The position numbers and the translations under genes are program-made. Positions 1,567-4,934 of a DNA stretch of 64,000 nucleotides are shown in pieces (within the stretch, counting starts at the first letter, position 1; every line of letters starts with the position of its first letter). The notes below the pieces were generated by a model. The model searched no databases and was not told where the DNA came from. It was given only the letters and a program-made list of their open reading frames with translations. The stretch comes from a virus: positions 41,924-105,923 of the IMG/VR virus record IMGVR_UViG_3300035696_000019; one strand, 5' to 3'.

Positions 1567-1900
1567 GCCCTGGACGGTTGCGAGACGCAATGAAGCGGTT
1601 CCGACACTTTCCCTAGGGTTTCCGACGGTTTTCGGTATTTCTCCTACCCCTAGGGCACCTTCCCTAGCCCTTACCAGTCCTCGGGTGGCACCTAACCAGT
1701 CCTCGGGCGGCCCCTAGGCAACCACCCCAAGGCACAAAGGGAATCCCCAAGGCTCCAGGCATCAAGCCCGAGGTGTCACCAGGCGTCGGGCGGCTCCTCA
1801 CCAGGCAGGCAATGGCAACGCCTAGGCGTCAGGCAATAAAAAACCCTAGGTGTATCCTCGGGCGTGAGAAAGTGAAAGTCCCGAGAGTTGCCCGAGGAGA
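1567..1900. repeat. non-coding spacer packed with CCTAGG/CCTCGG/CCGAGG/CCAAGG motifs; similar spacers at about 2335-2495, 3240-3575, 3990-4200 and 4580-4860
   Basis: A motif occurs roughly every 15-25 bp on direct reading. Confidence 0.8.
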
Positions 1901-1909
1901 TAAATCCAT

Positions 1910-1929
1910 AAACCGCACGGTGGCGGTTT
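1910..1929 (-). terminator. hairpin AAACCGC-N6-GCGGTTT downstream of the 1938..2234 gene
   Basis: Inverted repeat immediately after the stop codon. Confidence 0.55.
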
Positions 1930-1937
1930 CTGCTGCT

Positions 1938-2234
1938 TTAGAATTCATCCAAAGCATTTGCAATTAGCGTTTTGAACATAACGCGCGCTTGTCTGTAGTC
2001 GCGATTATTGAAAACGAACGCGGTGCGGAATGCGTCCTTTTCCATCAGCGCGCTATTTGCGTGAGAGATATTAGAACAACCTTTTGCGTCAAAAATTGCA
2101 ACAATGTGCGTGTATTCGTCCACGGTAGAAAAATCAAAGTGCTGACCAGCGATAACCGCGAACCGGTTACCCATGATGGATTTAGCGGATTCCATCATCG
2201 CGGAATATTGCTCAAACGTCGTTATAACTCGCAT
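1938..2234 (-). CDS. small hypothetical early protein
   Basis: 98-aa ORF with GAAAGG RBS, its own promoter and a downstream hairpin. Confidence 0.75.
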   Translation of the reverse strand: MRVITTFEQYSAMMESAKSIMGNRFAVIAGQHFDFSTVDEYTHIVAIFDAKGCSNISHANSALMEKDAFRTAFVFNNRDYRQARVMFKTLIANALDEF

Positions 2235-2269
2235 GGTGCAGACCTTTCGTGTTTGGTTTCGATGAAATA

Positions 2270-2298
2270 ATTATCGCAACCGGATATTGGCACTTCAA
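2270..2298 (-). promoter_or_regulatory. sigma70-type promoter TTGAAG-17-GATAAT
   Basis: Near-consensus hexamers with exact 17-bp spacing; member of a repeated promoter family. Confidence 0.75.
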
Positions 2299-2499
2299 GA
2301 GAGTTAAACACGATTGGTTTGGGCGTTTTAAACCGTAGGTGTGGCCTAGCGATCCATAAGCACCGCCTAGGTGTTGTGGCCTAGGCATGGTCAGGCAGAG
2401 GATTGGCCTAGCGATCAATAGGCAGTGCCGAGGAATTGAGTGAGATTAATACCTAGGTGTTGTGGCCTGGAGATGGATGGGCAGTGCCTAGGAGGATGC

Positions 2500-2600
2500 G
2501 AAGTAAACCGCACATAGGCGGTTTATCTGGCTACTCCAGATCACGCTCAGCAAGTCGTGCGCCCTCCAAATCATCCACACCAAACACGGTGCGCGGTTCG
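2500..2600 (-). ncRNA. candidate ~100-nt small RNA
   Basis: Promoter TTGTAA-17-GATAAT (2635-2607) and hairpin TAAACCGC/GCGGTTTA (2504-2525). The only ATG heading a sizeable ORF lies upstream of the expected +1. Confidence 0.4.
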
Positions 2601-2730
2601 CACATAATTATCACAACCGGATATTGACGTTACAAGCAATCAGCGTTGGGAGATTTGAACGAATTTTCGCTCGCCCGAGGAGAACCCGAGGAAGAATTAA
2701 AACAACCACTCATAGGAGTGGTCTGGTTGA

Positions 2731-3165
2731 TTACCATGGGAGAATGCAGTTTTCACCGTCGTCATCATCGAACTGGATTTCATCCAGATCAGCGAAATAA
2801 ACCGCGCGACCAAATTTTTCATGCATATGCAAGCGGTCATCATCAAAGCACAATTGCTCTACCGAGAGAATGATTGCATCGTGTTGAATGTATTCCGCGC
2901 TGTAGTGCTTGCTTAAACACTCATTCAATTCCGCGTAGTCGGAACCCAACGCGAATTGTTCTTCAATCAGTTCTCCAGTCACGATGTTAATCGTGCGGTA
3001 AAACATGACATCGTTGAAGTAATCCGTTTCACCGTCGTCATTAGTCATGCTGACCACGCTGACCACGTATGACGCGCTGCGATTTCCAGCGTTGACGTAG
3101 CAACACTCAAACAGCGGTATAGATTTAAACTGACTGCTTGCACGGTCGATAGCGTTTTGTTCCAT
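2731..3165 (-). CDS. acidic hypothetical early protein
   Basis: ORF with GAAAGG RBS before MEQNAI; promoter TTGAAG-17-GATACT at 3235-3207. Confidence 0.75.
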   Translation of the reverse strand: MEQNAIDRASSQFKSIPLFECCYVNAGNRSASYVVSVVSMTNDDGETDYFNDVMFYRTINIVTGELIEEQFALGSDYAELNECLSKHYSAEYIQHDAIILSVEQLCFDDDRLHMHEKFGRAVYFADLDEIQFDDDDGENCILPW

Positions 3166-3606
3166 GATGTTACCTTTCATTCGGTAGCGAGTTATCAGAC
3201 GCATTTAGTATCCATGACCGGTATTGGCACTTCAAGCGATCTACTTGGGAGCTTTCTACTCAGGGAGCACCCATCGTCCGGTAGGATACCGTTTCCTCGG
3301 GCGCTGACGCCCCTAGGAGACGCCCAAACACTCTAGAGCTACCCAACCCTTCCCCTGCTAGCGAAAACGCCTAGGAAGCGCTCTGTGTGCCCGAGAACAT
3401 TTCACCTATCCCTACGTCGCCTAGGTGTCGGTAGGCAACGCCAACACCCAACCAGGGATGCGCCGCACTCAACCAGACCTCGGGCGGCTCCTATCCAGGC
3501 TTCGGGCGGCAGAGAAAACGCCTTGGGGTCAGAGTGTGTTGAAACGCCCGACGGTGCGCTGCGTCGGGTGAGGTGAGTGACCGCGCGATGACGCGGTCAA
3601 GATCGA

Positions 3607-3888
3607 TCAGTATTCGATTTCCAGCGTATCGGACATTTCCTCACCGTAACCAAAATAATTGTCCGTTTGATCGCGCACCGTCGCGAGCAGCGCACTTGCT
3701 GCGTAAAGATCAACGGTGGTCATGGTGACTTTGATGTTGCGCTCGTTTTCACCATCGGTCTGAAAATCCAGGCGGATGTCCGCGACCACACCGTCGTTAT
3801 CGCGGATCAGTTGGGCACAAACATAGTTGTCGTAGTCCGGGTTAAATTCCGTGATCTTCACGGTTCCTTTGCGGGGGATATGTGTCAT
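3607..3888 (-). CDS. small acidic hypothetical protein
   Basis: 93 aa with GGAG RBS, upstream promoter and hairpin at about 3578-3599. Confidence 0.75.
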   Translation of the reverse strand: MTHIPRKGTVKITEFNPDYDNYVCAQLIRDNDGVVADIRLDFQTDGENERNIKVTMTTVDLYAASALLATVRDQTDNYFGYGEEMSDTLEIEY

Positions 3889-4241
3889 GGTGGTTTACTC
3901 CGTGGTGGGTTTCGATACTCACAGTATCGCGCAGCGGAATAGGCTTAGAAAGCGAAAAACAGGCTGTTTGCGCAATTTTTCACTCATGCGCCCGCGAGGT
4001 GATGGGTTGAATATTGCTCGCAAAGTGCATTTATTGGCATTTTCCACCGCGCTCAACTGTGACACTCGGCAGGGTGTCACATAGAGGAGAAATGCACCCC
4101 TCGGGTGTCAATCGTGGTCTGAGATGGGTCAGGCAGCGCCTCGGGCTGGCCTGGAGTGGAATAGGTAGTGAGTGCGCTATGGCGTGGCCTAGGTGCAGAG
4201 AGGCAGCAGAACAACCGGACTGATGACCGGTCGGGTGTTGG

Positions 4242-4436
4242 TTACGGCATACAGGGATCAACCCTGGCATCGGAAACCCAACCGAGTTGCATGGCGTGTT
4301 GCTCGGACTTTGGCAGTGCGTCGAACTGGGCGCGCGTCATGTCATTGCATTCGATGATGGCTTCGATCAGGTCGTCGTCGCCCAGACGACGGTTGAACTC
4401 GGCGTCGATCACATCTCCGTCACGGTAGGTTTCCAT
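4242..4436 (-). CDS. small acidic hypothetical protein
   Basis: 64 aa with GGAG RBS. Confidence 0.65.
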   Translation of the reverse strand: METYRDGDVIDAEFNRRLGDDDLIEAIIECNDMTRAQFDALPKSEQHAMQLGWVSDARVDPCMP

Positions 4437-4934
4437 GATTTTATGCTCCGGTCGGTTGGTATGAGCACAGCATGACCACGCAGTATTGGCATGAAAACAC
4501 GTTTTAGAGGGATTTCGCGCAATCTTTCATTGTCGTTTTCGAGGGTGTAGGGGCATAAAATGCTAAAACGGCGGATTTTGAGCGGCAAGGGTGTCCCATG
4601 CCGAGGGGTTCGGCTGATGGCAGGGTTTCCCGATTCCGTGGTATCTCTGTGGCCGAGGGCTTTCGACTCCCGCCAGTAGACGGTAGGCACCAGGTGAGCG
4701 CCGCAGGCGCGAGCCGGTGCCGTTCTACTCCCGAGGATATCACCAGGCCGAGGGCTTTCCCTCTCCGCTACCTAGGATCAGTCCTACCACTCCCTAGGGG
4801 TCAATCCCTCTGCCAACCATGCGCCTTCGGCGCCAACTGGCACTGGGAACACCCTTTCCAGTCTATAGTTGGCAGGGAATTTTTATACCGTGGATGAATT
4901 TTTCCCTCGCGCGCGCGCATTTAGAAAAAACCGA

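Follow-up and report, generated by a model that had tools for sequence, protein, structure and literature searches.

The first 4,860 bp of the viral DNA analysed here consist of motif-packed spacers that alternate with motif-purged transcription units. This DNA, a stretch of 64,000 nucleotides (the window), corresponds to bases 41,924-105,923 of a 105,923-bp virus contig (IMG/VR record IMGVR_UViG_3300035696_000019, here G000) that is 98% complete. Five small transcription units (u1 to u5) located at 1567-4860 are set apart by six spacers carrying arrays of the palindrome CC-N2-GG, and the last of these spacers borders a zone that lacks GGS and SCC trinucleotides (S being G or C) and encodes a basic protein, u0. 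To judge from related loci, u0, the CC-N2-GG arrays and the GG/CC-free zone form a conserved three-part module whose central dinucleotide drifts by lineage, and the layout of arrays and spacers appears to be a control element of phage genome ends of a kind not described before. The reading that we favour, at slightly below an even chance, is that the helically phased arrays are bound by a phage protein, possibly u0, and insulate or regulate the early cassettes.

CC-N2-GG palindromes are concentrated between terminators and promoters

CCNNGG sites occur at 12.4 per kb in 1567-4860 compared with 2.4 per kb in the rest of the window, and 15 of the 18 CCTAGG copies in the 105,923-bp genome are located in this region, all within the six spacers. 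Using 1000 dinucleotide-preserving shuffles of the six spacers as the null model, we observed 15 CCTAGG sites versus 0.68 expected (z 17.7), 16 CCTCGG/CCGAGG sites versus 1.6 (z 11.4) and 37 CCNNGG sites of all kinds versus 13.9 (z 6.3), which rules out a chance origin of the motif density and bears out a preliminary description of this DNA in which the spacers had been called dense in such sites. The list of motifs given at that time holds for CCTAGG and CCTCGG/CCGAGG, but CCAGG and CCAAGG are not enriched by themselves, and the motif of this genome is CCTMGG/CCKAGG. The number of CCWGG sites in the spacers (10 observed versus 5.8 expected from the shuffles, z 1.8) was not significant, and the mirror arrangement GG-N2-CC was not enriched, with 10 occurrences versus 37 of CC-N2-GG.

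Each of the six arrays occupies the gap, 60-360 bp long, that separates a cassette's terminator from the sigma-70 promoter of the following cassette. When the loci of the window phage and of its relatives (see below) were pooled, the spacing between pairs of sites peaked sharply at 10-11 bp, an element of the form CCTAGG-CATC-CCTAGG recurred in both orientations, and the flanks showed a symmetric preference, with A disfavoured before the site and T disfavoured after it.

Spacer A (1567-1905), which borders the GGS-free zone, holds the largest array, with 13 CCNNGG sites (5 CCTAGG, 3 CCTCGG, 2 CCGAGG and 2 CCAAGG among them). Spacer B (2300-2505) contains 4 CCTAGG, 1 CCGAGG and 2 GGCCTAGC, and spacer C (2640-2700) has a pair of CCGAGG sites at 11-bp distance, which precedes the -35 hexamer of the u2 promoter by about 35 bp. 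Seven CCNNGG sites are found in spacer D (3240-3575; 3 CCTAGG and 2 CCTCGG), 2 CCTCGG, 1 CCTAGG and 1 CCTGG in spacer E (4085-4215), and seven CCNNGG, including 2 CCTAGG and 4 CCGAGG, in spacer F (4500-4860), upstream of the u5 promoter. The spacers had been described as not being copies of one another, with only the short motif recurring. They are in fact partly related: segments of about 25 nt are common to spacers A and D, which also share CGGGCGGCTCCT-N-CCAGGC, spacer A has a 22-bp tandem repeat at 1669-1716, spacer B has internal duplications, and GGCCTRG / GGCAG-N-GCCT blocks are common to spacers E and B.

Ten of the 64 6-bp palindromes (AGGCCT, AGTACT, CAGCTG, CGTACG, CTCGAG, GAGCTC, GGATCC, GGGCCC, GGTACC and TGTACA) are wholly missing from the 105,923 bp of the genome. 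Because the genome otherwise avoids palindromes, the retained CCTAGG cluster looks positively selected. Several other 6-bp palindromes are present in one copy each, and GGATCC is also missing from four relatives (G001, G002, G004 and G005) and from the phages nickie and SSU5.

The only pair of CCTAGG sites outside the array is found at 19200-19400 on the minus strand, between a hairpin terminator (19380-19405) and a TTGATT-17-TAATAC promoter. This junction lies amid DNA-metabolism genes and is of the same type as the array spacers.

GG and CC steps are purged from the zone and from nearby cassettes

The GGS/SCC-free zone (1-1566) extends 292 bp to the left of the window, for a total of 1,859 bp in which GGC, GGG, GCC and CCC do not occur at all, compared with about 130 expected. 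Its contents, on the minus strand, are the u0 promoter (P-u0, TTGTAG-16-TATAGT, 1308-1281), u0 (1208-426), a 176-aa ORF and a terminator. The purge is graded, since the cassettes closest to the zone are the cleanest and the bias fades with distance: GGS occurs 0.8 times per 100 bp in u1, 0.6 in u3, 2.4 in u4 and 5.3 in u5. The spacers have 6.6-13.6 GGS per 100 bp (at least 8.7 in five of the six), with a GGS/SCC density of 12.2 per 100 bp in spacer F, and the genome average is about 7.

The module recurs in related phages with a different dinucleotide and different cargo

The gene content of the window includes a lambda-like head and tail module, a split DnaE polymerase, CobS/CobT-like proteins and SbcC, together with a ligase, a primase, a helicase and an integrase. 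The DnaE is 40-46% identical to that of the Rhizobium phages RHph_X66, B1VFA, V1VFA-S and RHEph10, and is identical to the same extent (40-46%) to that of Stenotrophomonas phage BUCTxx99, Pseudomonas phage nickie and Salmonella phage SSU5. Based on these similarities, we place the phage as an uncultured member of a large siphophage group related to SSU5 and RHEph10; its sequence describes a siphophage of about 106 kb, with the Rhizobium phages RHph_X66/B1VFA and RHEph10 as apparent kin and SSU5 as a more distant relative. A nucleotide search with 1300-5000 against 50,697 phage records gave no match.

Neither a locus search of viral contigs nor a tblastn search of the phage records gave a match with u0 alone, and the relatives were reached only by a profile of 16 u0 homologues, which are 41-50% identical and are found on contigs of about 100-110 kb. 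This profile retrieved 15 viral loci of uncultured relatives (IMG/VR). In most of them the u0 homologue lies within a GGS-free run (up to 978 bp) and is preceded by CCTAGG-rich cassettes of terminator, spacer and promoter. For example, all 17 genomic CCTAGG sites of a complete 108-kb relative (G001) are inside 2.7 kb, and all 18 of a 72.6-kb partial contig (G005) are inside about 1.8 kb. One locus (L004) has CCAAGG and CCAGG in place of CCTAGG, and the preferred motif across lineages is CCTAGG, CCAAGG or CCATGG/CCACGG. By tblastn, u0, the helicase, a ParB-like gene and a small-terminase candidate are syntenic across the related loci, and u1, u3, u4, u5 and the 176-aa ORF have no match in any of the 15. 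A comparison of gene content between the spacers had been proposed in the preliminary description; its outcome is that the cargo is not common to the 15 loci and u0 is.

The layout is also found in cultured Rhizobium phages. In RHph_X66, 10 of the 13 CCTAGG sites lie within 4.2 kb, where some 1.2 kb of non-coding DNA containing short repeats is followed by the u0 homologue, by cassettes spaced with CCTAGG/CCAAGG and by a purged zone of 786 bp without GGS/SCC and with two GG/CC steps only. The corresponding zones of B1VFA (851 bp, L026 42408-43259) and V1VFA-S (1,279 bp, L027 23661-24940) contain zero GG or CC in genomes of 59% G+C. RHEph10 has no CCTAGG in its genome; its parts are laid out in the same way, but the spacers carry CCATGG and CCACGG, and the GGS-free zone is 1,169 bp long (L036 98813-99982). 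Both the u0 homologue and the CCTAGG cluster are missing from SSU5, nickie and BUCTxx99.

In each lineage the purged zone is a complete transcription unit, and the genes it contains show no similarity between lineages that we could detect: the ORF in the RHph_X66 zone (6770-7339) has no BLASTP match to the 176-aa ORF and scores an hhalign probability of 1% against the u0 profile. The purge therefore tracks position rather than gene family. The zone had been likened to a mirror image of the arrays, and the two features do travel together in three lineages. Descent of the spacers from decayed coding or IS DNA, a possibility raised in the earlier description, was rejected, since motif and position are kept across the three lineages and the sequence is not.

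Because two Rhizobium phage lineages (RHph_X66/B1VFA and RHEph10) differ in the dinucleotide, a protein that reads the motif is more likely to be encoded by the phage than by the host; or the reader may be one that checks just the CC and GG steps. The same difference bears on the earlier suggestion that the arrays are a decoy for restriction or methylation enzymes, in this case a decoy or sink for host enzymes that recognise CCNNGG-type sites. Type II enzymes that recognise CCTAGG, CCWWGG and CCNNGG are known, but this explanation now appears extremely improbable, given that the motif differs between phages of one host genus, that the sites track transcription-unit boundaries, and that clustered unprotected sites would be a liability in a genome that has purged ten 6-bp palindromes and has no methyltransferase that we could find. 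A search of the phage genome for C5 and N6/N4 methyltransferase and TGT/DpdA families found none. An explanation by base modification was rejected on this ground.

The array and the zone probably lie in a long direct terminal repeat

B1VFA and V1VFA-S are reported to have direct terminal repeats with fixed ends, 3,605 bp and 3,939 bp in length, respectively, whose coordinates were not published (PMC12509600). We aligned the two complete genomes and measured, for each 3,605-bp interval of B1VFA, the length of the homologous V1VFA-S segment. Of the 95,154 testable starts, only those at 39,631-39,809 map to 3,939 +/- 3 bp in V1VFA-S, and the 334-bp difference in length is made up of a 322-bp insertion within the GG/CC-free zone and small indels. 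This placement assumes homologous cut sites in both phages and a correct length for V1VFA-S, and its unique B1VFA solution (start at 39.63-39.81 kb, end at 43,235-43,413) covers both the array and the GG/CC-free zone. The repeat placed in this way would start in the non-coding region, include the u0 homologue, the small cassettes and all of the clustered CCTAGG sites except the first, and end at the end of the GG/CC-free zone (43,259). We consider it likely that the array and the GG/CC-poor zone constitute the long direct terminal repeat of the phage. By synteny, the repeat of the window phage would run from within 4,900-6,000 to approximately 300-500 bp left of the window start; the assembly of this phage contains a single copy.

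How DNA entry is stopped, held and restarted in T5-type phages with long terminal repeats, and what role the repeats play, is a decades-old question. In T5, pre-early genes and untranslated repeats are located in the terminal repeat, where the repeats are conserved and the cargo differs from one relative to another. Only the first-step DNA of T5 is accessible to restriction and CRISPR, and Davison proposed that this DNA lacks sites of A1, the nuclease with which the phage degrades host DNA (10.1101/866236). A staged entry like that of T5, already raised in the preliminary description, is rather unlikely as an explanation of the window layout but has several points in its favour. One end of the repeat would enter first, and the arrays, bound by a host protein or a first-made phage protein, would be hold or ratchet sites that pace transfer cassette by cassette, with the GG/CC-free tip alone inside during an activity on CC/GG DNA. 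The array and zone, as the only fit to the B1VFA and V1VFA-S repeat lengths, are probably in the long terminal repeat, of which the zone would be the extreme end, the zone is a self-sufficient transcription unit in each lineage, and the order of terminator, array and promoter would let a bound protein pull in the next promoter once RNA polymerase stops. A GG/CC-free tip beside CC-N2-GG arrays would fit the T5 scheme. T5 also resembles the window phage in having a long direct terminal repeat (a probable one in the window phage) with first-expressed small genes under host-type promoters, cis repeats that are conserved next to variable cargo, and a first-exposed segment of apparently constrained site content.

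The likeness to T5 does not extend to the signals themselves. T5 has long inverted repeats and paired DnaA boxes in one large untranslated region, an 'injection stop signal' in the words of Davison (10.1101/866236), whereas the window phage has a 6-bp CC-N2-GG palindrome in every inter-cassette spacer and zero matches to the DnaA box TTWTNCACA in the 64-kb window versus 3.3 expected. On reading the spacers by eye we saw no inverted repeats of the IRC/IRD type, and no similarity between the two phages was detected in sequence or in proteins. For the array and zone proteins that were scanned, no PHROG or Pfam family was found, and hence none of the T5 families dmp, A1 or A2. Staged entry is further weakened because two-step transfer is not known from this phage lineage, because a similar junction lies 15 kb deeper in the genome, and because the zone genes of the window phage point outwards, to the repeat boundary.

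A combined version, in which one CC/GG-reading activity, a phage nuclease or coating protein, treats the arrays as hold points for genome entry and as walls round the early cassettes and leaves a GG/CC-free tip of 0.8-1.9 kb untouched, is quite unlikely. If such a two-part code were true, it would be a second, independently evolved two-step infection strategy, whose stop and immunity signals, unlike those of T5, would be legible in the sequence. The lineage offers a countable pair of signals, a palindrome confined to spacers and a stretch free of GG/CC, and since three of its members are cultured on Rhizobium, both signals are open to mutation and the reader protein to isolation. In addition, the pair may serve as a practical marker for terminal repeats and first-expressed cassettes in metagenomic phage contigs, and first-expressed cassettes are the usual place of anti-defence genes.

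The confinement of the arrays to the inferred terminal repeat is also compatible with a role as cis sites for making or using that repeat, either as a platform for the small terminase or for end processing, or for the pairing of repeats in circularisation or concatemer formation. Small terminases bind phased, repeated short sites, such as SPP1 pac and lambda cosB, and a conserved HTH-type small-terminase candidate is encoded about 9 kb away. In T7, short repeats adjoin the terminal repetition, and Dunn and Studier are said to have reported in 1983 that they flank it. Provided that the arrays do lie in a terminal repeat, the window phage shares with T7 a short motif repeated many times at the genome end, fixed direct terminal repeats and proximity to strong early host-type promoters, but the T7 motif is a non-palindromic 7-mer whose copies have no gene cassettes between them, and T7 has a terminal repeat of 160 bp. 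We regard this role as improbable, since the six clusters over 3 kb track the boundaries of transcription units and not those of the repeat, one junction lies outside the repeat, and the boundaries deduced for B1VFA are 200-350 bp (left) and about 1 kb (right) from the nearest site.

Probable protein binding at the arrays and candidate readers

The enrichment of the palindrome relative to its mirror, the spacing of sites by one helical turn, the placement between terminator and promoter (also at the extra junction at 19200-19400) and the depletion of partial sites from transcribed segments together argue for cooperative protein binding at the cassette boundaries, which we judge to be probable. 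To that extent the multi-site platform envisaged in the preliminary description stands, as the motif is strongly non-random, helically phased and conserved throughout a phage lineage, and the intervening genes are not. Each cassette consists of a sigma-70 promoter, a small lineage-specific gene and an intrinsic terminator, and under the favoured reading the CC-N2-GG arrays would be cooperative sites of a phage-encoded DNA-binding protein. Sites are often paired one helical turn apart, and occupied arrays would form nucleoprotein barriers or operators at the boundaries between cassettes. Such barriers could block read-through and supercoil coupling between strong neighbouring promoters, and occupied arrays could also shut off the early cassettes collectively, with the purge of GG/CC steps keeping the transcribed segments free of the protein. 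Taken separately from binding, a role as insulator or regulator seems to us somewhat short of evenly balanced.

The best candidate for the reader is u0, because it is a basic winged-helix protein and the product of the sole conserved gene of the block; even so, the assignment is tentative, and we would sooner doubt than assume it. Alone among the genes of the block, u0 (260 aa, 1208-426, minus strand) has counterparts in the relatives. Its predicted structure (pLDDT 82) has a disordered Lys/Ala-rich N-terminus, a helical middle and a C-terminal winged helix, and the latter matches MarR/ArsR-type regulators, TubR and the globular domain of H1 (linker histone) with Z 8-9 and an rmsd of 2.4-3 Å over about 80 residues. 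For a predicted model these scores indicate a common fold and nothing firm on function. The predicted recognition helix carries an invariant ESTASTQxSSTRMML in the clade of the window phage, and its core, TA(S/G)TQxSST, is kept in all three lineages, including RHph_X66 and RHEph10. In RHEph10 the homologue, with the helix TAGTQASST, is found in the frame of record positions 96,342-96,932; gp142 of that phage (L036 5171-6061) is apparently annotated in the wrong frame. In two related loci (L005 and L007) the block holds a pair of u0 paralogues separated by a few kb.

Several points weigh against the favoured reading. Simple occlusion is unlikely, given that every site is located clear of the promoters, 35-300 bp upstream of the -35 hexamers. 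The u0 recognition helix does not differ between the relatives with a preference for CCTAGG and L004, where CCAAGG is preferred, and since the helix stays constant while the motif changes, u0 alone cannot explain the central dinucleotide. In the Rhizobium phages, u0 lies outside the GG/CC-free zone, and the zone gene has no detectable similarity to u0. A different pressure (a nuclease, PAM avoidance or end processing, for example) could account for the GG/CC purge. Finally, the terminal repeat of B1VFA was placed by inference from two published lengths, of which the V1VFA-S value was inconclusive in PhageTerm.

Other known arrays of short sites offer partial parallels. The stoperators of cluster A mycobacteriophages, which are sites of the L5 gp71 repressor, are many short intergenic sites that act on transcription through gaps. 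Like the window arrays on our reading, they are numerous short sites of a protein-binding type in intergenic gaps instead of a single operator, but they are 13 bp long, asymmetric, oriented with transcription, mostly single and spread genome-wide, whereas the arrays are dense 6-bp palindromes in one 3-kb block. The sites of omega of pSM19035 and of ParG, the parC sites of ParR and the tubC sites of TubR are short-repeat arrays bound cooperatively by ribbon-helix-helix or winged-helix adaptors. These par and operator arrays consist of very short repeats spaced 7-11 bp apart upstream of promoters, and the window arrays match them in a pair spacing of 10-11 bp and in the position of all clusters upstream of promoters, cooperative binding being putative here. 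They differ in being located on plasmids, at one par or copy-control promoter or at a few of them, with none interleaved with early phage cassettes or placed beside a motif-free zone.

A further possibility is a plasmid-prophage centromere, whose short-repeat sites would be bound by a partition adaptor in the manner of type Ib/II par systems. Genes for ParA, ParB-like proteins and RepC are present in the B1VFA lineage, which has been described as phage-plasmid-like (PMC12509600), and ParB-like genes are syntenic in the window phage. A ribbon-helix-helix-like gene of 93 aa, located about 500 bp past the outer edge of the zone, would suit such a system. We nevertheless find a centromere highly improbable, as the arrays are not adjacent to the par genes, the window phage has an integrase and two of its relatives are classed as integrated proviruses, and neither the alternation with early cassettes nor the GG/CC purge would be explained.

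The 93-aa ORF itself (L001 10868-11149, or about -1056 to -775 relative to the window, plus strand) lies beyond the left edge of the zone, has homologues in L006 and L011, and encodes a ribbon-helix-helix-like N-terminus, GRHSVAASSEVLEML, followed by a long helix. From these sequence features we propose its product as a second candidate reader of the 6-bp palindromes.

The cassettes and their cargo

The five units of promoter, gene and hairpin recognised earlier in 1567-4860 were confirmed. All genes of 1-4860 are on the minus strand, and the units are arranged, from right to left, as u5, u4, u3, u2 and u1. The cassette promoters belong to one sequence family (TTGAAG, then TGCCAATATCCGGTTGC, then GATAAT, of the type TTGAAG-17-GATAAT), and the aligned minus-strand promoter regions (n=5) have in common a GCCAATA(T)C core in the promoter spacer. 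Promoters of u1-u3 are near the sigma-70 consensus and those of u4 and u5 are weaker. A hairpin is present at the 3' end of every unit, and three of the four cassette proteins are acidic (pI 4.1-4.2). By sequence, the cargo genes u1, u3, u4 and u5 appear to be orphans or members of small unnamed families.

The u5 cassette comprises a promoter recognised from the promoter alignment as a weak member of the family (P-u5, TTTCAT-17-ATGCTG, 4468-4496), a lineage-specific acidic ORF of 64 aa (pI 4.1, 4242-4436) and a hairpin terminator read from the sequence (4214-4231). In u4, the promoter TTCTAA-16-GATACT (P-u4, 3923-3950) precedes an acidic cargo ORF of 93 aa (pI 4.2, 3607-3888) and a hairpin terminator, also read from the sequence (3578-3599). 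Scans of Pfam and PHROG assigned neither u5 nor u4 to a family. The u3 cassette has the promoter TTGAAG-17-GATACT (P-u3, 3207-3235), an acidic ORF of 144 aa (pI 4.1, 2731-3165) and an intrinsic terminator (2704-2723). u3 has 26 distant homologues that make up a small unnamed family, and its model, the only one made of a cargo protein, is a confident alpha/beta structure (pLDDT 92.5); there was no fold match in PDB or BFVD, no Pfam family and nothing above noise in the protein atlas, and locus searches of viral contigs with u3 alone gave no match. The u1 cassette consists of the promoter TTGAAG-17-GATAAT with an extended -10 element (P-u1, 2270-2298), an orphan ORF of 98 aa (pI 6.3, 1938-2234), whose sole match among 5.8 billion proteins is itself, and a hairpin terminator read from the sequence (1910-1929).

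The u2 unit (2505-2635) has the promoter TTGTAA-17-GATAAT (2635-2607) and a terminator (2505-2524). It had been described as a putative RNA, and the stretch from about 2604-2505 could yield an RNA roughly 80 nt long or else contain a 24-codon ORF, but u2 has no Rfam match, and apart from the terminator it folds no better than shuffles (z -0.9). There were no Rfam matches and no tRNAs in 1-7000. An RNA-based explanation of the region was rejected on these results.

Turnover of the cargo could itself be what the layout is for, with the spacers and promoters acting as recombination scaffolds, a source of microhomology for gene swaps in the manner of the PeSL (promoter-early stem-loop) elements known from hyperplastic regions in T4-type phages. 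The cargo is wholly different between relatives in which flanks and architecture are kept, the promoters are one sequence family, the spacers have short common blocks and internal duplications, and PeSL provides a precedent (PMC2839356, PMC4122927). In T4-type phages, PeSL regions likewise contain rows of small, poorly conserved early ORFs that are framed by promoter and stem-loop and reshuffled between relatives (PMC2839356; PMC4122927). PeSL is, however, one compact promoter-hairpin motif, whereas the terminator and promoter of the window phage are 60-360 bp apart with a gap of phased palindromes between them, and no dinucleotide is purged from PeSL regions, which also do not form terminal repeats. 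As microhomology leaves the palindrome, its mirror asymmetry, the 10-11 bp phasing and the GG/CC purge unexplained, and as shuffling may be a consequence of the layout and not its function, this explanation has little probability.

Sequences flanking the module

Upstream of the array, 4861-6400 is non-coding DNA of about 1.5 kb with no convincing ORF. It contains 5.5 exact 11-bp CCCACTGTTGA repeats (5358-5417) with one degenerate copy near 5470, purine-rich repeats of the GAAGCGAGGAGGA type (4930-5000) and, at 5990-6015, a patch rich in A+T. Its minus strand also has two promoters that resemble the sigma-70 type, at 6294-6265 and at 5277-5248. Comparable non-coding repeat regions precede the arrays of L006, of RHph_X66/B1VFA (ACCTTTACA repeats) and of RHEph10 (TGTTGACA repeats). 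By analogy with B1VFA, 4861-6400 is expected to hold the outer boundary of the terminal repeat; the region could be an origin or the site of that boundary.

At the opposite side of the module, the non-coding gap at the outer edge of the zone has two direct copies of TGAAAGGGTGATGT (L001 11520-11640, about -400 to -290 relative to the window). Two copies of a different repeat of about 22 bp are found at the same place in L006 (10940-11020), and the edge repeats of these two loci are possible end-processing or boundary sites.

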